Source of the DNA: a phage
Sequence record: PQ400055.1
Direction: 5' to 3' (one strand)
DNA: 64,000 bases
The translations under genes were made by a program, and so were the position numbers. Position 1 is the first letter of the stretch; each line of letters starts with the position of its first letter. Of the stretch, positions 5,138 to 58,406 are shown one piece after another. Below the pieces are notes generated by a model, which worked only from the letters and a program-made list of their open reading frames with translations, made no database searches and was not told where the DNA came from.

Positions 5138-6628
5138 ATGGCAGATTTGAAATATGGATCTACTGTAGGTGGATCTCCCATTTGGACGCAAGGAAACTTG
5201 ACGATCCAGCCAGCGGGGGATCAGCTTTTCTACAAAGGTCATAAAATCTATACCGCTTTTGATAGACCTTCGGCTACCGATTTTGATGCTGTTAGTGCAT
5301 CCGAAGGTGGCACATTTCAAAAGCAAGTTCATTTCGAGGAAGGTTTAAGCGTAGGTAGCGCATCGGCTGGAGAAACCAAAAAGAATGGTATCTTTAAAGG
5401 TCAGAGCGACGCTGCTAATTTTGACGGCGTAAGCTGGGGTTTGCATTCATGGAAGTCAATCGGCTTTGTTAATGCCCGTGATGGCGTTATTATGGCGTAT
5501 ATTGACACCACAACGGGCGAATTTAAGTCTAAAGGGACTATCGAAGGGACAACCATTAAAGACACAGGTCAACGTGTCTATAGCCCTGTTAATAAACCAA
5601 CGAATAATGATTTGGATTTAGTTTCCCGTCGCGGTGATACTCTCTCAGGAACGTATAATTTAAACACTGTCACTGTTAAACTATCGGTTGATTCGAAATT
5701 AATTGCAAGGGAACGTGATTTAATTAATTTTGATGCGACTAAGATCTATTATGGTAACGTTCTTGATACGTTGGTCTTCCGAAGTAAAGATGAGCCTACC
5801 ATTTTTGTTAATGGCAGAGAAGGTCGTTTTTATCACACCAACAATAAACCAACTAAAGCCGATGTTGGGCTAGGCAATGTCACCAATGATGCACAGGTTA
5901 AACGTGCTGGTGATATTATGGAAGGTAACTTGCAAGCGCCTAGAATGTTGGCGACAAACGATCCCGCTGGTCCTAATGAATTGGTTCGTTTGAGCTACTT
6001 TGAGCGAAAATCAATGGTAGCAAATCCAACCATCATTGGAAACGTTGATTGGAACACTCTTATTAATCGCGGTATCTATCGTGTGGAAAATGCTGGGTCA
6101 GGTACTAATAAACCGTCTGATAGCTATTATAACGGCGTTTTGATGGTATATCGACCAGAAGATGCGGTCGGTACTCGTCGAATTGTTCAGGTGTATTATC
6201 CTGAATCTATTGACCATCCGATGTGCTGGCGTTCGTGTTCTAATGAATCATGGACTGCATGGAACTATGTAGATCACCGTAAATTAGCCGATATTCGCTA
6301 TGTTAACGTAACTGGCGATACCATGACAGGACCGTTAACTGTTCCGGCTGCAAATGGCGTTAGAACAGCTAAAACTAACTATAACGGGGATAACTGTTAT
6401 GCGGCGTTAAGCGGTGCTGATGGTACTGCTATGATTCACCGCATTAGTGATATTAAAGGGACCGAAAAGCTGGGGATCACCCACGACTCAAAGGTCGTGT
6501 TTTTCCGTTCTCGAAACAATACTCAAACCGTGGACCGCTATCAGCTTTATCATGAAGGTAATAAACCTACTCCGGCTGATGTTGGAGCGGTTCCACTTAA
6601 TGCGGTGATTGATTTTGGTACTTTCTAA
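5138..6628 (+). CDS. 36: long tail fiber distal connector (gp36), extended relative to T4
   Basis: N-terminus MADLKYGSTVGGSPIWTQGNL matches T4 gp36 MADLKVGSTTGGSVIWHQGNF; 496 aa vs 221 aa in T4; late promoter TATAAATA upstream. Confidence 0.82.
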   Translation: MADLKYGSTVGGSPIWTQGNLTIQPAGDQLFYKGHKIYTAFDRPSATDFDAVSASEGGTFQKQVHFEEGLSVGSASAGETKKNGIFKGQSDAANFDGVSWGLHSWKSIGFVNARDGVIMAYIDTTTGEFKSKGTIEGTTIKDTGQRVYSPVNKPTNNDLDLVSRRGDTLSGTYNLNTVTVKLSVDSKLIARERDLINFDATKIYYGNVLDTLVFRSKDEPTIFVNGREGRFYHTNNKPTKADVGLGNVTNDAQVKRAGDIMEGNLQAPRMLATNDPAGPNELVRLSYFERKSMVANPTIIGNVDWNTLINRGIYRVENAGSGTNKPSDSYYNGVLMVYRPEDAVGTRRIVQVYYPESIDHPMCWRSCSNESWTAWNYVDHRKLADIRYVNVTGDTMTGPLTVPAANGVRTAKTNYNGDNCYAALSGADGTAMIHRISDIKGTEKLGITHDSKVVFFRSRNNTQTVDRYQLYHEGNKPTPADVGAVPLNAVIDFGTF

Positions 6629-6698: not shown

Positions 6699-9629
6699 AT
6701 GGCAGATTTAAGCAGAATCCAATTTAAACGCACTAGCACTAAAGGTCGTAAACCGGATGCTAGTACGATGAATCCGGGGGAATTGGCAATCAACCTTGCG
6801 GATCAATATCTTCTTACTAAAAATGATTCCGGTGATATTATCAATTTAAGTTGTCCTCCGGTGTATGACCGCGATGTTACAATGGCGGGTAAGGTTAAAG
6901 GTAATAATTATATCTTAAGTAAAACCGCTAACTATCTGGAAGATCAGACAGCGAGAGATCTTAACTACTTTGGTGCTTTCCGTACCAATGGTCTTGATGG
7001 TCTTCTCGAACTCACGCTAAACGTTCCTCACTCTTCCGGTGTCCAATATGGTCGAGGATTTACTTTCCAGTATGGACATACTGGATCACGAGTAGAAACC
7101 TATGGCTATAATAGAGAAGGTCAAAAAGCATTTAGCTATAAAATGTATCACGAAGGTGATAAACCAACTCCAGGAGAATTGAACGTCTATAGCAAACAAG
7201 AAGTTGACCGTATGTTTGTTAAGAACGTTAAACTTGCTACATCTCCTCGTGATATCGTTGAAGGCTATTTTAAATTAGCAACTGCAATGATTCCACAAAA
7301 CGGTCTTAGCGTATTTTTCCGTATTCATGGCGGTAACGGATATAACGTTACTGCATACGATCAAGTTGATATTGTAGAAATTGTTATTCGCAGTGGAAAT
7401 GGTCGCCCTAAAGGTGTTAACGTTATTGCATATCGCCGAAATACAAACAAATCATTTGATGTTTTGGCTGTTAATACTTCTGGTGATAACTATGATATCT
7501 ATGTGAAATATCAGCGTTACACTGATAACGTTATTGTTGAATTTGGTAAAAGTGTTGGTGTTAATCTGGTAGTTCATGACGTTCCAGATTTTGTTGCTGA
7601 ACGTCCTGCTGGTGATAATGTTATTGGCGGTCGTGCTGTAACTCTTTTCAACACCGAAAATAAACGTGGTGTGTTAAGTTTTGATGATAACACACAAAAC
7701 AGCTATGACATTGTTCATCTAAGTAATGATAAAGGTACTGGACGGAAATATATTCGTAAATTCCGTAGCAATTATAACGAAATGGTTTGGCATGAAACCG
7801 TTCAGGGTGCTGTATATCGTCTTGCTACTGGTGCTACAGATTCTACAGAAGTTATTAGAATTGATTCTAATAGTGCAATACCGGGTAATTATAAAGGATA
7901 TGTAATTACTGGTAAAATGGAATTGCACGGTGGTGGTAATGCGATGACTTTACATCGACAGACTGGTCAAGCTGCATATATGGCGTGGTGGGATCGTCGT
8001 GATGGTAAAAACCAACGTAGTGGTTATATCGGTCATGCGGATGGTACTAGTGATGGTTTTGTGTGGCGTAATGATGTTGGTGCTAACTCATTTGATTTGG
8101 AAGGTAGTGGACAAGTAAATTTGACTACAGGAAAAACAAAAATTGTATATACCAATGGTCAATATTATTCCGCTAACGCTGATGCATTCCGTATGATTTA
8201 CGGTAAGTATGGTGCATTCTGGCGAAATGATGGTGGTAAAGTTTATCTGTTGTCTACTGCCGAAAATGATAGATTTGGTGGTTGGAATACATATCGACCT
8301 TTTATCTACGATCTTACTTCCGGTAACGTTCAATTAGGTGGTGATGGAAACGAAGATGTATTAACTCTAGAACGCGCAAGCAAGGCCGCTCGATTCTCTG
8401 GCAACGCTTACATCAAAGGTCAACATTTAACATTTGATGCTGGTGCTGGACAATCCCGCGATTACTTCCGGTTTAACCATTGGGGCGATAGTAATAACGC
8501 TCGCGATAACATCCTACAGATTGAAGACAGTCAGGGTGCACACTTTACCACTGAACGCGCTATGGGTACTGGCAATATCACAGCACGTTTTAAAGGCTTT
8601 GTGCGTGTAGAATCCGGTGAGATTGCCTTTGATGCTAATCGTGGATCTGCGTCTCAATTTACCTTACATACATGGGGTAACGAGCAACGCAAACAGGTTT
8701 TTGAATGTAAGGATGCTACTAGTTATCATTGGTATACCGAACGTACAAACGGTGGAACTGGTCCTATCCTGTTCTCTGTTGCTGGTACATTAAAAACTGC
8801 GAGCAATATACAGGTTGGCGGTGCTGATATTGAGTTTCGTCGCAGTGGTAATAAGCATTTATGGTTTAGAGATCCGAACGGTTTAGAATTAGGTTTGATG
8901 TACTGCGATGATGCTGGTGTTATCCGCTTCCGTGGTCAGAAACAAGGTCAAACTTGGAAACTTGCTGATAAAATGATTCATCTTGAGGCGGGGACTGTCG
9001 GCGGGTCTGATAAAGGTTTGATTCGTGGTAATGTTGCTGGTGGTAGCTGGGCTAGCTGGCGTGATCGTTCTGCCGGAATCCTCGTAGACTGTCCGAACTC
9101 AACCGATTCCGCTCATAACATCTGGAAAGCGACTCATTGGGGAAAATATCATATTGCGGCAATGGGTGTGCATGTTCCTAGGGGTACTATTACCAATGCT
9201 TTAGCTCGCCTAAACGTTCACGACGCCAACTTTGACTTTAACGCTGCGGGTGATTTTAGCGCAGGTCGTAACGGTAGCTTTAACGATGTTTATATTCGTT
9301 CTGATACTCGCCTTAAAATCAATAAGGAAGAGTATAAGGAGAATGCCACCGATAAAGTTAATCGCTTGACGGTATACACCTATGACAAGGTTAAATCTTT
9401 AACCGACCGTACTGTCATTGCTCATGAAGTTGGTATTATTGCTCAGGATCTTGAAAAAGAATTGCCGGAAGCCGTAACAACTTCTAAGATCGGCGATCCA
9501 GATAATCCAGAAGAGATCTTAACAATTTCTAACTCCGCTATCAACGCTCTTTTAATTAAGGCGTTTCAGGAAATGAGCGAAGAATTGAAAGCCGTTAAAG
9601 CTGAACTAGCGGAACTTAAAAAGAATTAA
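6699..9629 (+). CDS. 37: long tail fiber distal subunit (gp37) with C-terminal intramolecular chaperone-like domain
   Basis: N-terminus [29 protein letters not shown] matches T4 gp37 [29 protein letters not shown]; C-terminal ~110 aa ([14 protein letters not shown]...AELKKN) resembles peptidase S74 auto-cleaving chaperone. Confidence 0.88.
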   Translation: [976 protein letters not shown]

Positions 9630-9669
9630 GGAAACTCCCAGGGAAGGGAACTACTAAGGAGAAACGGCT

Positions 9670-9909
9670 ATGGTCTATAATATCGTCATTGGTGCTTTGT
9701 CTAATTTCGGAATGAAATTATTGTCAAAGTTAATTAGTGAAAAGATGCTCACTAAAATTTTCTTCTATTGCGCTCGTCGTCTTGCGGCCTATACCAATAC
9801 GCCAATTGATGATCGTTTCGTGGAAGAACTTTATAAGGAGTTTAATAAAGATCAGTCAGAAGATAGTAACGAGCAAGATAAACCTAGTGATAGTCAAGTA
9901 CCTAAATAA
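9670..9909 (+). CDS. hypothetical small protein with hydrophobic N-terminus, in the position of T4 gene 38
   Basis: 79 aa ORF with strong RBS aaggag 8 nt upstream; hydrophobic N-terminus, acidic C-terminus; no recognisable gp38 similarity. Confidence 0.5.
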   Translation: MVYNIVIGALSNFGMKLLSKLISEKMLTKIFFYCARRLAAYTNTPIDDRFVEELYKEFNKDQSEDSNEQDKPSDSQVPK

Positions 9910-9942
9910 GAGTACACTGTCATAGTTATCTTAGGGCATTAT

Positions 9943-10599
9943 ATGCAAGTTTCTGAAAAAGGGAAAGACTTTGCTATCTCAAATGTCCTGCGCGCTATTT
10001 TCACAACTAAAAGCACGGAGTTGCTCGTACTTCGTGTTTTTGCTGCCGTCGTGTTGTCCATATTAGCATTTGTCGTTTATAGTAAAAACGAGTTATTTGC
10101 GCTTTATAAAGAGACTCGTTATGAGACTTATGCTCACATTCTCCAGGTAGAGAAAGACCGCAATTTTGATAATGCAGCACAGGAGCAGTTACAGATAGTT
10201 CATGTGTCGGCTGATGCCGATTTTTCTGCTGTTTTTAGTTTTCGTCCGAAAAACCTAAACTATTTTGTTGATTTGGTGGCATATGAAGGAAAGCTACCGC
10301 ATACAATCGATGAAAAAAATTTAGGCGGATTCCCTATCAATAAAACGAGTGAAGAATATCGTAGGCATCTTTTAGGTAAATCATATTTTACCGATAAAGA
10401 TTTCCAGTATATTCCATCAAGAGAAAAGAAATTAGAGAATATCGATATAGGTTTCATGTATTCTTGTCCTATATTCAATCTCGATAATGTCTATTCTGGT
10501 AGTATCGCCATTTCATGGAAGAATAAACCGGATATTGACATTGAGAATTTAGATACTCTTTGCAATCAATCTGCCAGAATCCTCGGAAGGATTAGATAA
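9943..10599 (+). CDS. t: holin
   Basis: 218 aa, same length as T4 holin t; motifs YKETRYETYAHILQVEKDR, QLQIVHVSADADFSAVFSFRPKNLNYFVDLVAYEGKLP and MYSCPIFNLDNVYSG match T4 t. Confidence 0.92.
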   Translation: MQVSEKGKDFAISNVLRAIFTTKSTELLVLRVFAAVVLSILAFVVYSKNELFALYKETRYETYAHILQVEKDRNFDNAAQEQLQIVHVSADADFSAVFSFRPKNLNYFVDLVAYEGKLPHTIDEKNLGGFPINKTSEEYRRHLLGKSYFTDKDFQYIPSREKKLENIDIGFMYSCPIFNLDNVYSGSIAISWKNKPDIDIENLDTLCNQSARILGRIR

Positions 10600-10604
10600 C
10601 TTAA

Positions 10605-10638
10605 AGGGGAAGCCTTTCGGCCTCCCCTTCTTTTTTAT
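10605..10638 (+). terminator. terminator after holin t, at the convergence with minus-strand genes
   Basis: aggggaagcc-tttc-ggcctcccct followed by tcttttttatt. Confidence 0.75.
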
Positions 10639-10883
10639 TGGCGCATAGAAGCCCCTGAATCACATTTTGACGCTGTATGATGAAAACAGGTAGCGTACCA
10701 GTCATCGGCTTGTTTGTCTTCGTCAGAAAACGCGTAATTGCGTTGTATGCCGTTTTCTACTTTGACCAGTGCAATAGCTGTTTCTGGAAGATCAATCAAT
10801 CGGACAAAATCGCCATCTTCCCATTCTACACGAGCAATATCATAACCCATCTCAAAATAAACAATCGCTTGTTCTAATTTCAT
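10635..10883 (-). CDS. hypothetical protein
   Basis: 82 aa ORF convergent with t; no recognisable similarity. Confidence 0.45.
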   Translation of the reverse strand: MKLEQAIVYFEMGYDIARVEWEDGDFVRLIDLPETAIALVKVENGIQRNYAFSDEDKQADDWYATCFHHTASKCDSGASMRQ

Positions 10884-11212
10884 TCTGGAAACTTCCCGTA
10901 AATGTTCTCTGCTAACATACGCGCATCGCTAATGATATCTTTCATGCTATGACCGTAGTGTTCAGCCATTGAGTTGACACAATCAACAAAGAAATTATAA
11001 CGGCGACGGTTTAAGATTTCTTCTCTGCTATAGTTTTCATATTTGACGGTCGAGTGTGCTTTCTCGATTGCCTTGATTGCTATATTGACTTCATTGATAA
11101 TGGTTTTAGCATTGTATGCGCCACGACGGATCAGGATATTTGTCAATTCTCTTGCAATATCTTGCAATTCTTCATATTCATGTTCAAACATAATCAACCT
11201 CTCAAAATACAA
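10880..11212 (-). CDS. hypothetical protein
   Basis: 110 aa ORF, 4-nt overlap with downstream ORF; no recognisable similarity (not asiA by direct comparison). Confidence 0.5.
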   Translation of the reverse strand: MYFERLIMFEHEYEELQDIARELTNILIRRGAYNAKTIINEVNIAIKAIEKAHSTVKYENYSREEILNRRRYNFFVDCVNSMAEHYGHSMKDIISDARMLAENIYGKFPE

Positions 11213-11215
11213 TCC

Positions 11216-11548
11216 TTACAGATGAAAACCTGTTACGATCACCGCATCGATCTTACCGCTAGGAATAAACGGTTCGCCCTCTTTTATTTCAACTTTGAAT
11301 TGATGCCATTTCGCTAATACTTCTTCCGGTACACCCAGCGATTCGGCGTCTGCTTTAGTTTCATCCATAATCCAACTAGGCTGCATGAGAGCATAGTTTA
11401 CATAGTCCATTTCTGGGGTCATGTCATCAATGTTAATATATTTGCAGTTGACGCGTTTCAGAATTTCAAATTCTTTATTGTCAACCTGTACCATGTATAA
11501 TTCAGTAGTTTCTGGAATCAGTTCCCACACAATCAGTACATTTTTCAT
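11216..11548 (-). CDS. hypothetical protein
   Basis: 110 aa ORF in tightly packed minus-strand gene array. Confidence 0.5.
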   Translation of the reverse strand: MKNVLIVWELIPETTELYMVQVDNKEFEILKRVNCKYINIDDMTPEMDYVNYALMQPSWIMDETKADAESLGVPEEVLAKWHQFKVEIKEGEPFIPSGKIDAVIVTGFHL

Positions 11549-11556
11549 AGTTCACC

Positions 11557-11925
11557 TCACTTAACAAAGATTTTCTTTAATGCTTTCAAGATCGTTGCTT
11601 CCGGCGCTTCTTCCGGTGGAGGAAGCAATTCTACCACTTCCTCTTCCAACTCGATATAGTCTACCAGATATTCTACATAGAATGCAAGTGCTTCCATGAA
11701 ATTAGATGCTACATCCGATTCGCCACACGCGCCCACATGCATTGTATAAACATCACTGCGATCAAGTTTGTGGATGCTTCCCAGATAGTTCCGGTTATAC
11801 CAGACTTCCCACACTTTCAGCTTTCCGGTTTTGGTTGCTGTTTTATAATCGGTTTCGTAATGATGCAATTGACGTTGCAAATCATTGATAATAACACATT
11901 TTTCGTAATTGTTTTGAATTTCCAT
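11557..11925 (-). CDS. hypothetical protein
   Basis: 122 aa ORF with acidic C-terminal tail. Confidence 0.5.
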   Translation of the reverse strand: MEIQNNYEKCVIINDLQRQLHHYETDYKTATKTGKLKVWEVWYNRNYLGSIHKLDRSDVYTMHVGACGESDVASNFMEALAFYVEYLVDYIELEEEVVELLPPPEEAPEATILKALKKIFVK

Positions 11926-11935
11926 GATGTAATCC

Positions 11936-12127
11936 TCACTTATCGTTAAGAAGTTCTAAAACTTTCTGTCGTACTTTGTCAATATTAGTTGATTCAAAAA
12001 CTGTACGGTATCCCCAGCTTTGACCGTATGAGCGGTTGCAATCTCCATATCCCCATTGTTCAACCTGATAGTATTCAAGGAATGGATGCTGCCGAACTAT
12101 GATACCATCGCGATTAAAAATTACCAT
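11936..12127 (-). CDS. hypothetical protein
   Basis: 63 aa ORF; RBS gaggat upstream. Confidence 0.4.
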   Translation of the reverse strand: MVIFNRDGIIVRQHPFLEYYQVEQWGYGDCNRSYGQSWGYRTVFESTNIDKVRQKVLELLNDK

Positions 12128-12150
12128 AATATAATCCTCACGTCAACAAC

Positions 12151-12438
12151 TTATTTTCGGTTGTGGTCACGATATGTTTTAAAATATCCCTCGTACCACG
12201 GTAAAACATCTGGATTTTTACCACTATACAGACCTTTAACCATCATGTCAATAAGGCCATCTGGTGTTTGATAGTTTCCAGCTTTTATAAGCTCTCTGAT
12301 TAAAATCTCTCTGTATATGTCTTTCGGATCTTCGTAATCAACTTGTATTGTGGTTGTGGTCTCATTCAATTTGGTTTCTGGAGTATCTCGCATTGCATCC
12401 CACCAATCTTTTGTGACCTTCATGTTATTGAATTGCAT
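12151..12438 (-). CDS. hypothetical protein
   Basis: 95 aa ORF. Confidence 0.45.
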   Translation of the reverse strand: MQFNNMKVTKDWWDAMRDTPETKLNETTTTIQVDYEDPKDIYREILIRELIKAGNYQTPDGLIDMMVKGLYSGKNPDVLPWYEGYFKTYRDHNRK

Positions 12439-12449
12439 AATTTAACCTC

Positions 12450-13208
12450 TTACTTGCAAACGTATTGATCTACATCAATTGCGCCACCGAATGTGGGATG
12501 ACGTTTTTCAAATCGAATAGTTCCGTCGTTTGGTTCGAAAACGGAGTATTCATATAGATCTTTCTTGCCAACATTCTTATAAAACCCGCCTTTCGTCATA
12601 ACGGTTTCTTGTACGTTTGCTTTGTGTACGTTGTATTCATCAATGTATACAAAATCAACCATCTTCCCATTTTTAATGGTTACTTTAAGATCCCCTGGCT
12701 GGTTTCCATATTTTGCATACAGTGGAGCCTCTTTAATTTTTGTGGAAATTCCATCTTTCATACTCCACTCATAACGAACGGTGCATTGATAGGTAAAAGT
12801 TTCGACCTTCGGTTCTTCTACCACTTTTGCTTCCTGTTTCGGTTGTTCTTCTTCAACCTTCGCAGAAGTCTCTGAATCGCTTTCTGACGCGGTTTCTTCT
12901 TTAGGTAATACATTCATCAAGTTTTGGATTTGAGCGTTATATACAGCCTCCAGTGGCTGAATCTGCCCGATATTGATCATTGTATCACGAACAGTTTTAT
13001 TCCAGTTTCGTTGCTCTTGTTTCAGAGACGGATCAATCTTAACAGCCTTAACATACACCTCATGAAGTTTAGAGTCCAGTGCGGAGATAGACTCATTAGC
13101 ACAAATAAACTTCTCTGATTTGGTAGTAGCTTTAGCGCAATCAAAGGACGCAGCGTTAGCACCGAAAGCAGTAGCAGAAAGAACGATAGCAGCGATAATG
13201 TTTTTCAT
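12450..13208 (-). CDS. secreted protein with LprI/DUF1311-like (lysozyme-inhibitor-type) N-terminal domain
   Basis: 252 aa; signal peptide MKNIIAAIVLSATAFGANAAS; motif FDCAKATTKSEKFICANESISALDSKLHEVY...EQRNWNKTVRD fits the DUF1311 pattern; preceded by promoter cassette at 13237-13271. Confidence 0.6.
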   Translation of the reverse strand: MKNIIAAIVLSATAFGANAASFDCAKATTKSEKFICANESISALDSKLHEVYVKAVKIDPSLKQEQRNWNKTVRDTMINIGQIQPLEAVYNAQIQNLMNVLPKEETASESDSETSAKVEEEQPKQEAKVVEEPKVETFTYQCTVRYEWSMKDGISTKIKEAPLYAKYGNQPGDLKVTIKNGKMVDFVYIDEYNVHKANVQETVMTKGGFYKNVGKKDLYEYSVFEPNDGTIRFEKRHPTFGGAIDVDQYVCK

Positions 13209-13236
13209 AATATATTCCTCAGTGTTTTGTCTTGAT

Positions 13237-13271
13237 GGGAGTATCTTACTACTCCCTTAATCCGGTGTCAA
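13237..13271 (-). promoter_or_regulatory. sigma70-type early promoter cassette with palindrome around the -10
   Basis: Minus strand TTGACA-17-TAAGAT; inverted repeat GGGAGTA/TACTCCC brackets the -10. Confidence 0.6.
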
Positions 13272-13282
13272 CTACTTTTAAA

Positions 13283-13603
13283 TTATTTTCGCCATTCACC
13301 GGAAACAATAAAGTTTGTAAAGTGATCGTGGTCCATGATAACGTCATTAAGTACCATATGTGGATACACTTTAGTGATAATTTTACTAAGTACCATATGC
13401 GGATATGCTTTAGTGTAATCACGTTTACGATCAGTCATCCAGCCAACGAAAGTTGGTGCAAAGTACGGTACACCGTCAGACGATGCCATATTAAACCCTT
13501 TATCAACCATAAATGCAGCCGCCCTAAGATTTTTAATTGAAGTAGTGCGACTAATTTCAAAAACTTTATCGGTAAAATTCATTTTAAGCCCCCGCTCGTG
13601 CAT
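13283..13603 (-). CDS. hypothetical protein containing a 13-aa tandem duplication
   Basis: 106 aa ORF; in-frame 39-bp tandem repeat at 13348-13422 (KAYPHMVLSKIIT / KVYPHMVLNDVIM). Confidence 0.45.
   Translation of the reverse strand: MHERGLKMNFTDKVFEISRTTSIKNLRAAAFMVDKGFNMASSDGVPYFAPTFVGWMTDRKRDYTKAYPHMVLSKIITKVYPHMVLNDVIMDHDHFTNFIVSGEWRK
13348..13422. repeat. 39-bp tandem direct repeat (2 copies) inside a coding region
   Basis: taagtaccatatgtggatacactttagtgataattt / taagtaccatatgcggatatgctttagtgtaatcac. Confidence 0.6.
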
Positions 13604-13793
13604 TAATACGCATTTTCTGTATAGCCATGATCTGGTTTACTGCTTCTTCTTTACGTTCTTGCGTGATAATGTGACCAGATTCCGCAAACTCTCCAGCAAC
13701 TTCTTCTACGATCTCGCGAACTTGAGAACGTCCAAAGATGCGGTTTCCTTCGTAGCTCATAAACTCTGTTACTACTTGCTCGATAGATTTCAT
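13584..13793 (-). CDS. hypothetical protein
   Basis: 69 aa ORF preceded by promoter cassette and RBS aggag. Confidence 0.5.
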   Translation of the reverse strand: MKSIEQVVTEFMSYEGNRIFGRSQVREIVEEVAGEFAESGHIITQERKEEAVNQIMAIQKMRINARAGA

Positions 13794-13815
13794 GTGATTC
13801 TCCTTTCGTTTGGTA

Positions 13816-13850
13816 TGGGAGTATGTTACTACTCCCTTATCTTTACGTCA
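13816..13850 (-). promoter_or_regulatory. sigma70-type early promoter cassette with palindrome
   Basis: Minus strand TTGACG-17-TAACAT; GGGAGTAgtaacaTACTCCC; then conserved leader and AAGGAG. Confidence 0.6.
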
Positions 13851-13858
13851 ACTAGTTT

Positions 13859-14101
13859 TTAGAAATTTTTCGCTTCTTCTTCGGTCATCATAACCGCGCA
13901 TTCGTGCATAACTTTGAAAACCGGATCAATCATGTCGAATGCTTCGCGGGACAGTTTACGAGAAGCGATTTTGATTGCTTCTACGTCTTCTACTACAGGA
14001 ACAAAAACAGTTTTCAGTTCGTCGAGGACGGCAGCTTCTTTTTCATTCAGGAAGATCCCAGCGTCGTACAGTGCAACTTCGATAACATTAACTTTAACCA
14101 T
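13859..14101 (-). CDS. hypothetical protein (start moved to internal ATG)
   Basis: ORF track gives 13859..14164, but that start overlaps the -35 of a promoter cassette; internal ATG at 14101 has RBS ggagg. Confidence 0.5.
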   Translation of the reverse strand: MVKVNVIEVALYDAGIFLNEKEAAVLDELKTVFVPVVEDVEAIKIASRKLSREAFDMIDPVFKVMHECAVMMTEEEAKNF

Positions 14102-14128
14102 TTTTATTTCCTCCAGTTCGTTTCGGTA

Positions 14129-14165
14129 TGGGAGTATAATACTACCGATGACCTTTGGCGTCAAC
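14129..14165 (-). promoter_or_regulatory. sigma70-type early promoter cassette
   Basis: Minus strand TTGACG-18-TATTAT followed by ACTCCCATACC. Confidence 0.5.
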
Positions 14166-14365
14166 TAGTTTTTTGTTATTTTCGTGAAATTTTTCGTCGC
14201 CTCATGTGCTTTTCGCTGGGCTTCTTGTTGTGCTTGCTGGCGTGCTGCCTCTTGCGATGTCATAACAGACGCATTTGCAGCAGTTACAGCCGCGACCATC
14301 GCTGCGGTATTAGCATTTACCGTACATGCACTAGCCAGCAAAGCAATCGCAATCATTTTCTTCAT
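14165..14365 (-). CDS. small secreted protein
   Basis: 66 aa; N-terminal signal peptide MKKMIAIALLASACTVNA; Ala/Gln-rich mature part. Confidence 0.5.
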   Translation of the reverse strand: MKKMIAIALLASACTVNANTAAMVAAVTAANASVMTSQEAARQQAQQEAQRKAHEATKNFTKITKN

Positions 14366-14601
14366 AGTTTCCCCTTTAGGTTATCTTCGACCTTCACCCA
14401 TTCCGCGTATTCTTGCGCGGCTACTTTCGGATTTAAGCCGTCTTCGTACATTGCTTCAAGTAATTCTTCGTCGGTGGGCTTATACCCTAGATAAGCCTCC
14501 ACCTGATTTTTCCAAATTTTATACCAGTTCATATTATCACCAATCAAGAGCGCGTGTCTCTGCGTCTTCCCATGCTTGATCCATAACAGCCTTGAAAACA
14601 T
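14362..14601 (-). CDS. hypothetical protein
   Basis: 79 aa ORF; 4-nt overlap with downstream ORF. Confidence 0.45.
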   Translation of the reverse strand: MFSRLLWIKHGKTQRHALLIGDNMNWYKIWKNQVEAYLGYKPTDEELLEAMYEDGLNPKVAAQEYAEWVKVEDNLKGKL

Positions 14602-14808
14602 ATTCTAGAGTATCATCTTTAGAGAATCCGAAGACCTTAGACGGAATATCTTCAATTGCTACTCCCGCAACTTCTGCATTACGCGCTTGGCAATAATGCA
14701 ACTCTAAGTTATCGAGATAGCGACCGCCTAATTTCTCCATATCATCCCAGCATTTCCAGTAACCTACTTTATCTGCAATTGCCAACACTTTGCTGTTTTC
14801 GTTGTTCA
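14537..14808 (-). CDS. hypothetical protein (start moved to internal ATG)
   Basis: Internal ATG at 14808 preceded by ggagaatcaaag RBS and promoter cassette; track start 14872 lies inside the promoter. Confidence 0.5.
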
Positions 14809-14834
14809 TCTTTGATTCTCCTTTTGTTTGGTAT

Positions 14835-14869
14835 GGGTGTATTATGCAATGTTGGATTCTGTAAGTCAA
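14835..14869 (-). promoter_or_regulatory. sigma70-type early promoter cassette
   Basis: Minus strand TTGACT-17-CATAAT then ACACCCATACCAAAC...AAGGAG...ATG. Confidence 0.55.
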
Positions 14870-14882
14870 CAACTTTTTAAAA

Positions 14883-14910
14883 TAAAAAAGCCGACCACAA
14901 GGATCGGCTT
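14883..14910 (-). terminator. rho-independent terminator (minus strand)
   Basis: Minus-strand aagccga-tccttgtgg-tcggctt followed by ttttttatttt; same stem as the gene 35 terminator. Confidence 0.7.
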
Positions 14911-14919
14911 AATAATCAG

Positions 14920-15315
14920 TTACTTACTAAATTTCTTTTTGGCTTCGTCTACTGCATGAGATGCCAGCACCGCTGCCGCATGTGCACTTTTATCTGTGTT
15001 GCAGAGAACACCCAGATAAACATCACGCCAAAGTTTAATCATCTCGTAGATCATATCAATATCATTTTCTTGTTTGTTGGCGATGCTATTCGTCGTTATC
15101 TGGTAAGGCAACGGCTTGATCTGTACTGGTTCAGCCATCGGGCTAATCGGTTTCGGATCAGTCATAATAGGTGCTGTTGTTGGTGGTGTTTTCCATACAC
15201 CATTATTCCACGGTTTAATCGTTGTGTCGTAAAGTTTATAAGGATTTTTGTCTGGGTCAACCATCCATGCATGATGAGTACCCAAACCATTTGAAGTGAT
15301 GCGTCGTTCAGTCAT
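14920..15315 (-). CDS. hypothetical protein
   Basis: 131 aa ORF followed by a rho-independent terminator. Confidence 0.5.
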   Translation of the reverse strand: MTERRITSNGLGTHHAWMVDPDKNPYKLYDTTIKPWNNGVWKTPPTTAPIMTDPKPISPMAEPVQIKPLPYQITTNSIANKQENDIDMIYEMIKLWRDVYLGVLCNTDKSAHAAAVLASHAVDEAKKKFSK

Positions 15316-15318
15316 AAT

Positions 15319-15522
15319 TTATTTCCTCTCTGAAAATTCTTTCATCAAGCTGTCGATCTTTGCTCTGTGTTCTGGTGTGTTTGTCATCTCTGCTAATTTG
15401 CTCAGAGATTCAATAGTGATCCGGTTGGCTTCTTCCATAGTCTCAACGACCATTGGCACAATCTTTTTATTGTTGTACACAAATGCAATATAACCGCCTT
15501 CTGGATATTCTTTCATAATCAA
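15319..15522 (-). CDS. hypothetical protein
   Basis: 67 aa ORF directly downstream of gp52. Confidence 0.45.
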   Translation of the reverse strand: MIMKEYPEGGYIAFVYNNKKIVPMVVETMEEANRITIESLSKLAEMTNTPEHRAKIDSLMKEFSERK

Positions 15523-16865
15523 CCCTTCTTAAGTTCTTTAAGATCTTTCTTATATTCCTTCATTGCGGTCGTCTTTGTCCAATACTCATATTCACTATGA
15601 TGTTTATCGGCATCTTTGACCAGTCGATCATACTCTTCTTGAGTAACGCTATACAATGGCATAGAAACTAGCTTATCGGCGTATGGACGCAGTTTTTCAT
15701 GTCCATTGATGGATTGCATTACCTCGGCCTTTTTCTTGCCCTGTAGCTCGATTTCGCCCTTAATTACGCGGTCGATAAATTCGGCTTTAGCCATTGCATA
15801 ATTGTATGCTTCCAGCGTTTCCGCTTGCATCAATTCAATGCGTTTATCGACATACCCTAATCGGATTTCGACGAATCGACGGATCAGATCGCTCGCTTTC
15901 TCGAATACTTCTACTAAACCACGTTCATTAACCACTACGATATTCTGGGCTACTAACTGTGTTAGTTTAAAATCCTTCATGATTTGCTCATGTCGAGCGG
16001 ATTCATCTTCGCTTTTGAAATAATCGCGTTTCAGTGTTACTTCAAATCTGAATCCGTCCTTAGAGCAACGGTCATTATACGATACAATCAGATCTTTTTC
16101 TTCCAGTGCATCCAGTACCGCTACATATTCTTCACGGTCGAACTTATAAGGAACTTCTGATATTGTCAGTTTAGTCTTGCCGTTTAGTTCATATGTACCC
16201 TCAAGAATCACACCATCGCGATCATCTCGCGGGATAACTTTACCCGTGAATTTCGGGAATTGAACATTAGGTTCTTTATCCAGTTTTCCGGCAAGTGCTA
16301 GCTCTGTGCATTCAATAAGGCTTTCCAGTGAATGCGGTAAAATGTCAGTTTTATACCCTGAAGCAATACCACTAATACCATTAGCCAATACCATTGGCAC
16401 AACTGGCAAGTAGAACGCTGGCGGGATGTGTTCCAGATCTTCGTGCTTAGGTGCGCAATTCATATCTTTATAGATTTTAAAGAAGTTTTCATGCACACGA
16501 GCAAAGATATAACGTGCCGCTCCTGCTTTCTGGACTAAACGCGATCCGAAGTTACCTTGACCGTCAAGCAGTGGAGTATTATTGCTCCATGTATTCGCCA
16601 TGAGTGATCCGGCTTCTACGGCATTAGTTTCGCCGTGGTGATACCCCAACTCAGCGACACCAGATCCAATATCTGCCATCTTACGGAATTTCTTACGGTC
16701 GCCTTTACTCTTTTGCAAAGCACATTCCATAACAAAGCGTTGCACTGGTTTAAGCCCATCCACTAATTGAGGAATCCCGCGTTCCTCGGCAGAATAGATC
16801 GCATATTCCTTAGCTTCATTATGTACAATGCTTTCAAGGCTGCGGTAAGTAACTGATTTATTCAT
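15519..16865 (-). CDS. 52: DNA topoisomerase II medium subunit (gp52)
   Basis: GyrA-like motif GLKPVQRFVM as in T4 gp52 (GFKPVQRFVIA); about 448 aa from the ATG at 16865, which has RBS gaggtg (track start 16880). Confidence 0.88.
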   Translation of the reverse strand: MNKSVTYRSLESIVHNEAKEYAIYSAEERGIPQLVDGLKPVQRFVMECALQKSKGDRKKFRKMADIGSGVAELGYHHGETNAVEAGSLMANTWSNNTPLLDGQGNFGSRLVQKAGAARYIFARVHENFFKIYKDMNCAPKHEDLEHIPPAFYLPVVPMVLANGISGIASGYKTDILPHSLESLIECTELALAGKLDKEPNVQFPKFTGKVIPRDDRDGVILEGTYELNGKTKLTISEVPYKFDREEYVAVLDALEEKDLIVSYNDRCSKDGFRFEVTLKRDYFKSEDESARHEQIMKDFKLTQLVAQNIVVVNERGLVEVFEKASDLIRRFVEIRLGYVDKRIELMQAETLEAYNYAMAKAEFIDRVIKGEIELQGKKKAEVMQSINGHEKLRPYADKLVSMPLYSVTQEEYDRLVKDADKHHSEYEYWTKTTAMKEYKKDLKELKKG

Positions 16866-16872
16866 CTTCACC

Positions 16873-17235
16873 TCATACACGCTTACAAATCACATTCTTT
16901 ACTTTATCAGATTTATCAGCCCAATCCAATAGCCATTTTAACGGAAGGATTGACACAATAAACGGGGCAGCAATCAAAGCAAACATGATACACCTGATAA
17001 TCAGGAAAACGCAAGTGACAAAACTAGCGATAGTGATCCCGACAAAACAAAATACCATAGAAAACAGAGTAATGATATAGAAAGGCCAGAATACCCACTC
17101 CCGCATCTTAACGCCTTTGTATTCTCTGAATTGCTTAAAATCTACAAACAACTCTCGGATAGACGCGTACAGGACCGAAAAATCATCTTTCATTGCTCTG
17201 AATGAGCAATCTTCTATTTTAGAATGACCTAGCAT
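16873..17235 (-). CDS. hypothetical membrane protein
   Basis: 120 aa with multiple hydrophobic segments. Confidence 0.5.
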   Translation of the reverse strand: MLGHSKIEDCSFRAMKDDFSVLYASIRELFVDFKQFREYKGVKMREWVFWPFYIITLFSMVFCFVGITIASFVTCVFLIIRCIMFALIAAPFIVSILPLKWLLDWADKSDKVKNVICKRV

Positions 17236-17237
17236 TA

Positions 17238-17531
17238 TTAACCGCCTTTAACCATTGATACAGGAATTGTTTTCTGATTTGTGTATAAGTGGCCTACTTC
17301 AATTTTTTCTTGAATCACCACGACGTTACAATATCCACTGTCTTTAAGTTTTCTGATAATGACTCGCTTTTGTTCGTCGGTGATAGGATTGACTGTTCTC
17401 ACCAATTCACCGCAAATAATAGCACCATCTTTACAATTACCAGTAACTTTCATGCTACGACCGTGAACAACAACCACGTCACCGTAAATCACATTTTCGT
17501 CGTCGTATTTGGTAATAACCGTGACCGTCAT
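17238..17531 (-). CDS. hypothetical protein
   Basis: 97 aa ORF; RBS agaggg upstream. Confidence 0.5.
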   Translation of the reverse strand: MTVTVITKYDDENVIYGDVVVVHGRSMKVTGNCKDGAIICGELVRTVNPITDEQKRVIIRKLKDSGYCNVVVIQEKIEVGHLYTNQKTIPVSMVKGG

Positions 17532-17576
17532 AATATATTCCCTCTAAGAAAGGCCGCGCAAAGCGGCCTATGTTGA

Positions 17577-17903
17577 TTATTGTTCTACAGTATAACCGTT
17601 GTTTTCAAGCCATGCAATAACAATCTTTTCGCCAATTTCATCGAGCATTTCATCAGAGCCATATTCTTTGATGAAAGTCGATGGATCATTATTGCTTACT
17701 ACGTGCTGGATCACAACATGTTCAGGAATTGCGTCTAGTAGTTCGCTATGATCATACTCATTAACGATATCTTCAACACTAACATTATTAACCAAATCAA
17801 CATCATCCATAGTCACAGTAACGCGACCGGACGGACGCAATGAATATTGGCTACTTTCAACTTCAACATGTGCACTTTCGCAAGTAACTTTCATATCAAC
17901 CAT
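17577..17903 (-). CDS. hypothetical acidic protein
   Basis: 108 aa ORF; RBS agagg upstream. Confidence 0.5.
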   Translation of the reverse strand: MVDMKVTCESAHVEVESSQYSLRPSGRVTVTMDDVDLVNNVSVEDIVNEYDHSELLDAIPEHVVIQHVVSNNDPSTFIKEYGSDEMLDEIGEKIVIAWLENNGYTVEQ

Positions 17904-25095: not shown

Positions 25096-25515
25096 TTAAA
25101 TATCCTCCGCGATATGCCGGAACAACTCCAGATCGTTTTTATCCAGAATGAAACCGCTACAATCAATAATCCCGTTACCGTAATTATCGGTTAACAGTCG
25201 TTCCGTTGCCATGTATGCGCGTACTTTGTTGTTAAAATTCATTACATGTTGTGCATAGTCACAATGAATCTTTTGACGGTTCCACGCGACAATTGATTGT
25301 AGATGTATTACATTAGCCACATTATTAATAACAACCATATCAAAACCCTCGCTTAGTGGAATGTTCTGACATTTTATTGATACATACAGCTTGGTAGTCA
25401 CGAGATTTTTTGACGAATTAAGAGCTACGGCCAAAAAATCCTGTAACTGTTCGTTTGTCATTGTTGGCTTACACCGCGTATCTAAACTCTTCTTTCTTCT
25501 AGCTTCATTAGCCAT
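25096..25515 (-). CDS. hypothetical protein containing an internal duplicate of its own RBS/start cassette
   Basis: 139 aa ORF; ~55-bp direct repeat at 25339-25395 and 25516-25575, each ending in gagggttttgatATGg. Confidence 0.45.
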   Translation of the reverse strand: MANEARRKKSLDTRCKPTMTNEQLQDFLAVALNSSKNLVTTKLYVSIKCQNIPLSEGFDMVVINNVANVIHLQSIVAWNRQKIHCDYAQHVMNFNNKVRAYMATERLLTDNYGNGIIDCSGFILDKNDLELFRHIAEDI

Positions 25516-25575
25516 ATCAAAACCCTCGCTTAGTGAAATATTCGATCATTTTATTGATACATTCAGCTTCACTGT
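25339..25575. repeat. ~55-bp direct repeat pair carrying RBS and start codon
   Basis: Copies at 25339-25395 and 25516-25575, ~85-90% identical by eye. Confidence 0.55.
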
Positions 25576-25694: not shown

Positions 25695-27086
25695 TCAAAT
25701 ATAGTCTACTCGATACCTCGCACGGGTAACACCAACATATAATAACTGCATTGCCAATTCAAAGTCAACATTGTCTGTACACATGCAAGGAGTATACAGG
25801 AACACGCGGTCTACGCTGATCCCTTGTGACTTATGAATGGTGCAAGCTGGTAATGCTTTTACATTCAAGAACATACGCTTCATCGTCCAGAATGAATCCC
25901 AATCTGGTTTAAATTTTGGATTCTCTTTCTTCATTTCGCGATATTGTCCGGCAACCGTATTCAGATAGATAGAGAAAATGTTCTTCTGACGTTGTTCTGT
26001 CAGAATGTTGATTTCTACCAAATCCGGTTTATCTGTAGTGATTCCGACTGTATCTAAACCGACTTTCTGATTTAGGATTTCTTTGTCTTCGTCATCATCG
26101 ACGCTTTCCACTTTCAGAGTATAGCCTAAAACTGGTTGCGGATCTACCCCCGTGCAACGTAATGTAAATTCGCGCGGTATAACCTCTTTAACTCGGATCA
26201 TCTCACCATTGTTAAAAATAACATTGGGGATCTTCTTCCCGCGTTCATCTCGCAGATATTCGATCAATGGTTCCTGAGTAACCAGAATTTCATCTACAAT
26301 CACTGGTTCATCGGTGTTATAAACGCGCTTACGCACAATTTCATTGAGTTTTTCGACGCTCTTGTTAGTGTAGGCCAGAATACGGTTTTCTAGAAGGTCT
26401 TCCGGCGTTTTAACGGTTTCGAAATAATGCTTCATAAACTCCGGCAGAGTTGAGCTATGGAATACACCCTCGTTGCCGCACTGCTTTTCGAATACCCATT
26501 TACCATTACGGACAGCGGTCGCCACATCAATTATTGGCGCATTAGATCGTTTAATCTCTGTAAGTTCTACATTCTGAAACCTTTCATCGGTGAAGAAAGG
26601 AGAGATCGACGTTGCACCGCTCGGATCAACTGGTCGTAACTGGTACAGATCACCCACGGCAATAATAACAATTCGACCGTTGATACTCTTCATGAGAATA
26701 TCAAATAGTTTCTTATCGACCATACTCGCTTCATCAACAATGATGATCTGAACATCATCTAGCTTAGGAGTATCTTTTTGCTCAAATACTTGAGTATCTT
26801 CATAGTTGGTCGGGTTTAGTCGCAGTAGTGCATGTAAAGTAAATGCTTGACGACCTACCGCTTTACTCAAAACTTTTTTAGCCTGGTGGGTAGGCGTTGC
26901 CAAAACCACACCAGTTACACCACGGCGGACCATTTCCTGAACAATGAATTTCATCATTGCGGTTTTACCAGTACCCGCCGCACCACGGACAGTTGTATGC
27001 TTCTTTTGTTCAATACGTTTCATTAGAACATCAAAAGCATGTTTTTGCCCGTCTGTTAACATATCGAAAGTTAATACTCTGCTCAT
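25695..27086 (-). CDS. dda: Dda DNA helicase (SF1)
   Basis: N-terminus LTFDMLTDGQKHAFDVLMKRIEQKKHTTVRGAAGTGKTAMMKFIV matches T4 Dda MTFDDLTEGQKNAFNIVMKAIKEKKHHVTINGPAGTGKTTLTKFII; 463 aa. Confidence 0.9.
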   Translation of the reverse strand: MSRVLTFDMLTDGQKHAFDVLMKRIEQKKHTTVRGAAGTGKTAMMKFIVQEMVRRGVTGVVLATPTHQAKKVLSKAVGRQAFTLHALLRLNPTNYEDTQVFEQKDTPKLDDVQIIIVDEASMVDKKLFDILMKSINGRIVIIAVGDLYQLRPVDPSGATSISPFFTDERFQNVELTEIKRSNAPIIDVATAVRNGKWVFEKQCGNEGVFHSSTLPEFMKHYFETVKTPEDLLENRILAYTNKSVEKLNEIVRKRVYNTDEPVIVDEILVTQEPLIEYLRDERGKKIPNVIFNNGEMIRVKEVIPREFTLRCTGVDPQPVLGYTLKVESVDDDEDKEILNQKVGLDTVGITTDKPDLVEINILTEQRQKNIFSIYLNTVAGQYREMKKENPKFKPDWDSFWTMKRMFLNVKALPACTIHKSQGISVDRVFLYTPCMCTDNVDFELAMQLLYVGVTRARYRVDYI

Positions 27087-44651: not shown

Positions 44652-45676
44652 TAACTTTTTGCGCTATTTACTTCTGCTAAAAGTTCATCAGAGATACGCT
44701 TAACTGCCGCAAGTTCTTCCGGTTCTAGGTTTTGTTCTTCCAGATATTCATAGACCATCTGAATAGTGCTTTTAACTTCAATAACACCTGTTTCCTGTGA
44801 TGCGCTACTCTCCAGTTTATGGACCACTTTTAGCTTGTGTACAACGGCCTCTAACGCGCTTTCTAACTTAGTTAACCCATTATCAGCAACCGTTGCAATA
44901 AGACGCACACTAAGCCCCTTAAAGCGTTCTACATCGATTTTATCATCTGACGGGTAAGTGATACGCACATGATAAGTTTTGTCATTCTGGATAAACTCTT
45001 TTTTGTGTGTATCGGTATCGAATACCCAAAACCCACGCGGATCGTTTTCGTCACCCGCCGTTAGTGTGTATGGTGTACCGATATACGTTACATTACCGCC
45101 ATCGCTGATAGTATGAAAATGACCGGAAAACACTTCACGGTATTTCTTGAGGAAGTCCGCGCTATAACCTTCGGATTTTAGCCCTTTATAGAAATAGTAA
45201 CCGGACAATTCCCAATGGCCTACACAATATTCGCTGAATGAGTTTTGAATAAACTCTAAAATCTCTGATTTATTGTCATCACAAAACCACGGGAACAGAT
45301 CAAATGATACACCATCAAAGGTAACTGTTTCCGGTTTATCGATAACCTTAATGCAATCATACTGGCTTAACACTTCACGCGGTGCGTTAGGCTGGATCTT
45401 GTTTCGTTTAAACATATCATGGTTCCCGACCGTGATATAACAAGTAATTCCAGCCTCTTCCAGTAATGGGATGACCTTAGTACGGTTAAATTTCATGGTT
45501 TCATGGGTAATTGCTTTTCGGCAATCAAACCAATCCCCTGTTTGAATCCATGTCTTAATATTATGCTCTTTGGAGTATTCAACCGCCTTCTTGATGGTAT
45601 CAAGAATATACTCATGCACCCACGGATCATCGCCACCGATACCAGTATGCAGATCACCTAAAAGCAAAATTTTCAT
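44651..45676 (-). CDS. 47: recombination endonuclease subunit gp47 (Mre11/SbcD-like)
   Basis: 341 aa (T4 339 aa); calcineurin-like phosphoesterase motifs LGDLH, GNHD, GHFH. Confidence 0.88.
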   Translation of the reverse strand: MKILLLGDLHTGIGGDDPWVHEYILDTIKKAVEYSKEHNIKTWIQTGDWFDCRKAITHETMKFNRTKVIPLLEEAGITCYITVGNHDMFKRNKIQPNAPREVLSQYDCIKVIDKPETVTFDGVSFDLFPWFCDDNKSEILEFIQNSFSEYCVGHWELSGYYFYKGLKSEGYSADFLKKYREVFSGHFHTISDGGNVTYIGTPYTLTAGDENDPRGFWVFDTDTHKKEFIQNDKTYHVRITYPSDDKIDVERFKGLSVRLIATVADNGLTKLESALEAVVHKLKVVHKLESSASQETGVIEVKSTIQMVYEYLEEQNLEPEELAAVKRISDELLAEVNSAKS

Positions 45677-45721
45677 AGTCTCTTCCTCTCTTCGTTTTCG
45701 ATGCTCTCACTATATCACAGA

Positions 45722-57917: not shown

Positions 57918-58406
57918 CTATCTTAATCTTTGTATGAATTGTTTCTTATACTTCTTCGTGATCTCTTCTCTTGTATCAGCGTCGCAGTAATCGAAACCTT
58001 CTGCGTCCATAATAGCAACCATCTCCGCGCGTGTCAAGCGTGAAAATCGTTTTACTTTATCAACAGCATATTGAGGATGTAAATGATTGTTGGTGTAGTC
58101 TCCTTTGATGTAATTAACATAGTTTGTAGCCCAAACAACGAAATCAGCACCTAAAGCACCAACACCAAACCGTTTAAAGTCTCCGGTCAACGATCCTTCT
58201 AGGCGGTTGCAACACGAATGAAGCAATCCCCTTACGCGGCCTTGCCCTTTACCATCTAGATCGTGGTCGTGGTCAAGATGGTTTTTGCTCATATCCTCAA
58301 AAAGTGGCAATTGACAAAGGGGGCAAATGCCCCCCTGTTTTTCGAATAGTTCTTGTTTGTACTCTTTAGCACTCTTAGCAGTCAGTAACATAAATTCACC
58401 CTCCAA
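57918..58406 (-). CDS. 49: endonuclease VII (Holliday junction resolvase, gp49)
   Basis: HLDHDHDLDGKGQGRVRGLLHSCCN matches T4 gp49 HLDHDHELNGPKAGKVRGLLCNLCN; zinc-binding CPLCQ; 162 aa. Confidence 0.9.
   Translation of the reverse strand: MEGEFMLLTAKSAKEYKQELFEKQGGICPLCQLPLFEDMSKNHLDHDHDLDGKGQGRVRGLLHSCCNRLEGSLTGDFKRFGVGALGADFVVWATNYVNYIKGDYTNNHLHPQYAVDKVKRFSRLTRAEMVAIMDAEGFDYCDADTREEITKKYKKQFIQRLR

Follow-up and report, generated by a model that had tools for sequence, protein, structure and literature searches.

In bacteriophage T4, asiA and motA, the genes of the MotA/AsiA middle-mode transcription switch, lie between t and gene 52. The question raised by the phage of sequence record PQ400055.1 is whether its t-52 interval (positions 10635-15522 of the 64-kb stretch analysed here, referred to as the window) still holds them, and how transcription would be arranged if it does not. 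An earlier note, made from the sequence without database searches, had placed about 15 short hypothetical open reading frames (ORFs) between t and gene 52, none resembling AsiA or MotA, had pointed to many consensus sigma70 promoters, and had taken this to fit a phage without the switch. Both boundary genes were borne out by Pfam, and asiA, motA, arn, asiA.1 and motA.1 appear to be truly absent from the interval. We consider it very probable that the interval of RB49-group phages is orthologous to the T4 asiA-motA region, that these phages have no sigma-appropriation switch and that consensus sigma70 promoters are used instead; this agrees with the homolog, Mot-box and sigma70 tests described below and with the literature on RB49 (PMC1524935).

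The source phage was placed by megablast against 50,697 phage records. Positions 10600-15560 matched 59 records, nearly all from Escherichia or Shigella phages and some named or annotated Krischvirus RB49, with Skers (100% coverage, 96.9% identity) and kaaroe (98.0%) as the closest. The whole window, which spans gene 34, the tail-fibre genes, t, the interval, 52, rIIB, rIIA and the early region to about RB49 position 45,400, was colinear with the RB49 reference genome (NC_005066) at 95-98% nucleotide identity, and on this identity and colinearity the phage is assigned to the RB49 group of coliphages (Krischvirus). The DNA seen amounted to the 64 kb of the window; the remaining ~100 kb was checked by using complete RB49 as a proxy.

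Search for AsiA and MotA homologs

The T4 AsiA and MotA query proteins were taken from AF158101. Single-sequence phmmer searches of the window and complete RB49, both translated from stop to stop with a minimum length of 30 amino acids (aa), returned only noise (best E 2.4 for AsiA and 0.65 for MotA). Pfam searches with the 15 interval ORFs gave no match to PF09010, PF09114 or PF09158, and none of the 15 matched the PHROG families of AsiA (phrog_1166) or MotA (phrog_1345), to which the T4 proteins themselves, used as positive controls, were assigned at E-values of 1.3e-41 and 2.3e-98, respectively.

An initial search for T4 AsiA homologs gave only 10 close relatives, too few for a sensitive profile, and 1.84 billion proteins were instead scanned exhaustively by using HMMER. 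The resulting AsiA profile comprised 46 sequences, 36 of them 50%-identity representatives from that scan; phiAS4 AsiA, which appears frameshifted into two pieces, was left out. The MotA profile was built from seven phages representing five clades. Profile searches, which the earlier note had suggested as a check, were run with these hidden Markov models (HMMs) on the window and complete RB49, translated in all six frames, and the best E-values were 0.44 (AsiA) and 3 (MotA). At equal database size, leave-one-out tests recovered all 46 AsiA members (E ≤ 2.8e-10) and leave-clade-out tests recovered each MotA clade (E ≤ 6.9e-25). Thirty profile-to-sequence comparisons of the 15 ORFs by using hhalign reached probabilities of at most 0.8% for AsiA and 2.5% for MotA. 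No divergent AsiA or MotA homolog came to light in the interval, the window or complete RB49, and the statement that no ORF of the interval matches either protein was upheld by Pfam, PHROGs, phmmer, profile HMMs and hhalign alike. Both asiA and motA are also lacking from the RB49 RefSeq annotation, and T4 arn, arn.1-3, asiA.1 and motA.1 had no counterpart in the window or RB49.

For a test of the AsiA fold we chose ORF2, which is helical, 103 aa long and the second gene from t, as the most AsiA-like candidate. Its AlphaFold2 (AF2) model was a four-helix bundle (predicted local distance difference test score, pLDDT, 75) and AsiA was not among its Foldseek matches; the best PDB matches were designed helical proteins (E 0.54), and the only significant match in BFVD was the identical protein of phage ECD7 (template modelling score, TM, 0.95). 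ORF2 was accordingly rejected as a structural analogue of AsiA. Sequence searches of the PDB with ORF1, ORF2 and ORF7 gave no match.

Mot boxes and sigma70 promoters

Motifs were scanned by using regular expressions. As a positive control for Mot boxes we scanned T4 positions 1-50000, locus L001 by itself being too short for this purpose. This stretch contained 7 strict and 13 medium Mot boxes, where 0.3 and 1.5 were expected, mostly on the coding strand, with boxes directly upstream of 45, 45.2, 42, 56, uvsX and others. The 46 kb of the window that is syntenic with T4 contained neither strict nor medium Mot boxes. Counts of Mot boxes (TGCTT at about -30 plus a -10 element) were at chance level across the whole window (0-1, with 0.2-1.3 expected) and across whole RB49 (1-3, with 0.7-3.0 expected).

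The strict sigma70 pattern (TTGAC[AT]-N16-18-TA[TA][AT]AT) occurred 15 times in the window, every time on the minus (coding) strand, against 0.7 ± 0.8 in shuffles, in line with the many consensus promoters described earlier; a loose pattern occurred 46 times against 9.4 ± 2.8. When carried over to the RB49 alignment, the strict sites take in early promoters annotated there for gene 43, the uvsX unit and gene 44. T4 differs on both counts in its syntenic 50 kb, with 7-13 Mot boxes and one strict sigma70 consensus against no Mot box and 15 consensus promoters here (0.3-0.7 expected), and genes that have Mot-box promoters in T4 (e.g. 45 and uvsX) appear to be served in this phage by near-perfect sigma70 promoters. 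One claim of the earlier note failed: the interval is not the densest promoter-cassette region, as it holds 6 loose sites and none of the 15 strict ones, while other 4.9-kb stretches at about 17.5-23 kb and 55-62 kb hold 7 loose sites. A generic promoter scan of positions 9600-17600 likewise showed no enrichment (18 sites; 23 ± 4.6 expected).

Synteny with T4 and a retained arn.4 homolog

By phmmer, ORF4 matched T4 arn.4 (L001:5631-5960, minus strand) at E 2.5e-6, VR20_270 (annotated Arn.4-like) at 3e-5 and the VP8 ORF just after motA at 0.03. An Arn.4 homolog lies directly after motA in T4, VR20 and VP8, and the annotation of RB49p259 carries the remark 'similar to hypothetical T4 protein in AsiA-MotA region'. 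From homology and position together, ORF4 is assigned to the Arn.4 family (phrog_1594). Because this arn.4 homolog is retained, we regard the interval as the ortholog of the T4 asiA-motA region with different contents. In both phages t is convergent with the interval, 52 lies upstream on the equal strand, and the interval holds small early accessory genes over a comparable length (about 3.0 kb in T4 and 4.9 kb here); the phages differ in that asiA, asiA.1, arn, arn.1-3, motA and motA.1 of T4 are all lacking from the PQ400055.1 phage.

Promoter cassettes and variability of the interval

In the interval, no more than four promoters are truly intergenic, with their -35 elements at 13271, 13851, 14164 and 14869. 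They share a layout of an A-rich upstream tract, TTGAC(A/G/T), a 17-nucleotide (nt) spacer and a -10 element, and in the cassettes at 13271 and 13851 a 7-bp hairpin stem (GGGAGTA/TACTCCC) encloses the -10 element. Of the 7 copies in the window of the cassette TTGAC-N17-TAnnAT with ACTCCCAT after it, 3 are inside the interval, and a near-variant with CATAAT and ACACCCAT is found at 14869. Cassettes of promoter early stem-loop (PeSL) type and hyperplastic regions (Arbiol 2010) have been described for RB49 and phi1 (PMC2839356; PMC4122927), and the interval cassettes appear to match these published elements.

Compared with RB49, segments 10945-11214, 13284-13591 and 13872-14375 of the interval are replaced or inserted. 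Two indel edges are situated 13-21 nt upstream of cassette -35 elements (those at 13271 and 13851), and no part of RB49 encodes a homolog of ORF8, ORF10 or ORF11. The t-52 interval is best described as a known hyperplastic region of ORFans with PeSL cassettes. The order t, ORFans, 52 and the cassettes of near-consensus sigma70 promoters with stem-loops are shared with RB49 and phi1, as is the published lack of motA and middle promoters. The phage differs from RB49 in having ORF8 in place of p263, an additional cassette of ORF10 and ORF11 under its own promoter, and one copy of the ORF2 family where RB49 has p256 and p257; in these differences kaaroe and Skers are closer to it than RB49 is.

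We also observed that segment 13872-14375 (~500 nt), present in kaaroe and not in RB49, carries ORF10, the promoter at 14164 and ORF11. One edge of this segment lies ~20 nt upstream of the 13851 cassette, as expected under PeSL-mediated exchange.

Gene content of the interval

The interval contains exactly 15 ORFs, close to the earlier estimate, all on the minus strand and 56-252 aa long (Table 1). PHROG families were matched by 13 of the 15, every one of unknown function, and RB49 counterparts exist for 12, with 11 proteins at least 94% identical to members of RB49p255-268; these matches and this conservation make the ORFs look like genuine genes. The starts of ORF8, ORF10, ORF12, ORF13 and ORF15 were refined from upstream sequence and the kaaroe and RB49 annotation, the mechanical start lying too far upstream; in two of these five, what looks like a TTG start is really a promoter's -35 hexamer.

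Table 1. Coordinates of predicted genes and transcription signals in and around the t-52 interval.
Feature	Coordinates	Strand	Description
t	9943..10599	+	Holin; left boundary, convergent with the interval; Pfam Phage_holin_T, 4.5e-61; RB49p254 't'
ORF1	10635..10883	-	82 aa; Tad2-like/DUF2829; phrog_1048; 100% identical to RB49p255; exact position of T4 asiA
ORF2	10880..11191	-	103 aa; ORFan, predicted four-helix bundle; phrog_9457; ORF extends to 11212 with TTG start
ORF3	11216..11548	-	110 aa; ORFan; phrog_4658; 99% identical to RB49p258
ORF4	11557..11925	-	122 aa; putative Arn.4 homolog; phrog_1594; counterpart RB49p259
ORF5	11936..12127	-	63 aa; ORFan; phrog_6957
ORF6	12151..12438	-	95 aa; ORFan; phrog_15915
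ORF7	12450..13208	-	252 aa; predicted secreted, N-terminal LprI/DUF1311 domain (PF07007, E 1.4e-5, above cut-off); phrog_14799
ORF8	13283..13582	-	99 aa; phrog_19692; 39-nt tandem repeat; no RB49 homolog
ORF9	13584..13793	-	69 aa; ORFan; phrog_14966
ORF10	13859..14101	-	80 aa; ORFan; annotated kaaroe_181; no PHROG match; no RB49 homolog
ORF11	14165..14365	-	66 aa; predicted signal peptide or possible lipoprotein; no PHROG match; no RB49 homolog
ORF12	14362..14532	-	56 aa; ORFan; phrog_8655; 94% identical to RB49p265
ORF13	14537..14809	-	90 aa; ORFan; phrog_7287
ORF14	14920..15315	-	131 aa; ORFan; phrog_15644
ORF15	15319..15516	-	65 aa; ORFan; phrog_15105
gp52	15519..16880	-	Topoisomerase II medium subunit; right boundary; Pfam DNA_topoisoIV, 2.3e-68; RB49p269
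Predicted early sigma70 promoter, PeSL-type	13243..13271	-	TTGACA-N17-TAAGAT; hairpin 13237-13256 encloses -10, z-score -1.9
Predicted early sigma70 promoter	13823..13851	-	TTGACG-N17-TAACAT; hairpin 13817-13836, z-score -2.5
Predicted early sigma70 promoter	14136..14164	-	TTGACG-N17-TATTAT; degraded hairpin
Predicted early sigma70 promoter	14841..14869	-	TTGACT-N17-CATAAT; preceded by terminator
Predicted intrinsic terminator	14888..14910	-	Canonical hairpin with T-run; directly precedes the 14869 promoter, forming a terminator-promoter cassette

ORF1 matched Pfam PF11195 at E 3.4e-6 and 27.9 bits (gathering cut-off 25), with 71 of 73 profile positions covered. Its AF2 model, computed from a 3-sequence alignment, had a pLDDT of 60 and was too poor to confirm a Tad2 fold, and its Foldseek matches are meaningless. 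Tad2 proteins sequester glycocyclic ADP-ribose (gcADPR), thereby inhibiting Thoeris defence (bioRxiv 10.1101/2023.05.01.538930).

ORF2 shares 53% identity with RB49p256 and 32% with RB49p257, which stand as tandem paralogs in RB49 (155908-156678) and in kaaroe, the family being present in a single copy in the PQ400055.1 phage; the allele of this phage is also found in phages Brandy and ECD7. ORF8 contains a 39-nt tandem direct repeat at 13336-13413 (82% identity) that encodes a repeated K-x-YPHMVL peptide. At this position kaaroe annotates a repeat_region and RB49 has instead a different 51-aa ORF (p263).

Signal-peptide-like N-termini, consisting of lysines and then a hydrophobic stretch with a Kyte-Doolittle mean of at least 2.4, were found only in ORF7 (MKNIIAAIVLSATAFGANA/AS) and ORF11 (MKKMIAIALLASAC), the other 13 ORFs reaching at most 1.6; at the level of sequence features, the two signal-peptide proteins of the earlier note are therefore confirmed. 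Homologs of T4 spackle (sp) and imm were not found by phmmer in the window or RB49, so that ORF7 could, speculatively, be a periplasmic lysozyme-inhibitor analogue serving superinfection exclusion. Accessory functions in host takeover or anti-defence are probable for the interval ORFans, as exemplified by the Tad2-like ORF1 and the secreted LprI-like ORF7.

Other observations in the window

Among other T4 transcription and modification functions searched with phmmer, gp55 was present (E 2e-68) and srd, modB and rpbA were retained; motB, modA, srh, mrh and pin had no match in the window or RB49. Searches of these sequences with T4 gp42 (dCMP hydroxymethylase), a-gt and b-gt likewise gave no homologs, and gp56 was present, which together suggest that the DNA of this phage has unmodified cytosine.

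A strict sigma70 promoter at 58037 (minus strand; RB49 position ~39253) lies inside the endonuclease VII gene 49, for which the T4 record annotates an internal-start product (49') with its own promoter. The HNH homing endonuclease gene RB49p040 (RB49 26365-26931, beside gene 47) is missing here at about 45673-45677. At a break in RB49 colinearity, a 58-nt direct repeat was found at 25335-25569 (90% identity, copies 177 nt apart); window positions 25392 and 25512 map to overlapping RB49 sequence (6212-6269), which suggests a local duplication near dexA/p009.

Discussion

That the system is absent from RB49 has been known since 2002-2006, and the present finding is correct but ordinary; what is gained is a stronger set of negative controls and arn.4 as a synteny anchor, and no new biology. 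RB49 reportedly lacks motA and middle promoters (Desplats 2002, as quoted by Nolan 2006). Nolan 2006 (PMC1524935) found neither a motA ortholog nor a middle-promoter consensus in RB49, RB43 and Aeh1, and listed AsiA only for RB69, 44RR, Aeh1 and KVP40; Petrov 2010 (PMC2993671) mentions neither MotA nor AsiA. Aeh1 and KVP40 have AsiA without MotA, whereas the PQ400055.1 lineage has neither, and a MotA ortholog and middle-promoter consensus are not reported for RB43 (PMC1524935).

Explanations other than a missing switch were weighed against these results. A true AsiA or MotA homolog might have diverged beyond the reach of profile searches, and AsiA is indeed short (90 aa) and fast-diverging, the T4 protein finding homologs in Pseudomonas and Aeromonas phages at only 29-38% identity. 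We regard this as highly unlikely, given that left-out AsiA sequences were recovered at E ≤ 2.8e-10 against a best window or RB49 match of 0.44, that left-out MotA clades were recovered at E ≤ 7e-25 against 3, that hhalign probabilities stayed at or below 2.5% and that Mot boxes are missing. Relocation of asiA, motA or both to the ~100 kb beyond the window, in keeping with the cassette exchange of hyperplastic regions among phages (PMC2839356), is barely credible: complete RB49, 95-98% identical and colinear over the window, was negative in every frame, no close relative examined annotates either gene at the t-52 locus, and MotA would have no targets in the absence of Mot-box promoters.

An unrelated protein doing the work of AsiA or MotA, for instance a small early binder of sigma70 or RNA polymerase encoded by an ORFan in the interval or elsewhere, would give a middle-type switch with different parts. 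Thirteen of the 15 interval proteins have no known function, they are driven by early promoters and sit where T4 keeps asiA and motA, ORF2 is small, helical and roughly AsiA-sized with a family duplicated in RB49, and the AsiA without MotA of Aeh1 and KVP40 (PMC1524935) marks the system as modular. Such a switch is nevertheless improbable, since no new conserved upstream promoter element was seen, the T4 Mot-box genes have full sigma70 -35 and -10 elements here, which remodelling of region 4 would silence rather than activate, the four-helix model of ORF2 has no AsiA structural match in the PDB or BFVD, and several interval ORFs are dispensable across relatives. As a long shot, the prereplicative programme could be temporally ordered without sigma appropriation, with a conserved early ORFan in or near the interval acting as an unrecognised, non-homologous modulator of RNA polymerase or sigma70 that shuts off or retargets early transcription; the four-helix family of ORF2, p256 and p257 would be one candidate.

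Several points weigh against a phage without the switch. Missing homology does not prove missing function, and 13 of the 15 ORFs are without assignable function; motifs were matched as regular expressions and not with validated models of promoters; temporal classes are inferred from motifs alone, and no Krischvirus transcript data were found in the literature searched; and only 64 kb of the phage was seen, the remainder being covered by the RB49 proxy.

If RB49-group phages indeed lack sigma appropriation, an unremodelled sigma70 holoenzyme would transcribe the prereplicative genes from many strong early promoters and by read-through. In the interval, the four host-type sigma70 cassettes with stem-loops or a terminator would drive at least the downstream 13 genes, and ORF14 and ORF15, which have no intergenic promoter of their own, would presumably be carried on read-through transcripts from gene 52. 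Hairpins and terminators may partition the transcription units, and late transcription would follow through gp55.

The partial systems of Aeh1, KVP40 and RB43 place the middle-mode apparatus outside the T4-like core genome (PMC1524935), and the MotA/AsiA switch belongs to the T-even branch. The result is useful for annotation and as a caution against applying the regulatory model of T4 to Krischvirus: RB49-type coliphages infect the host of T4 without the MotA/AsiA switch.

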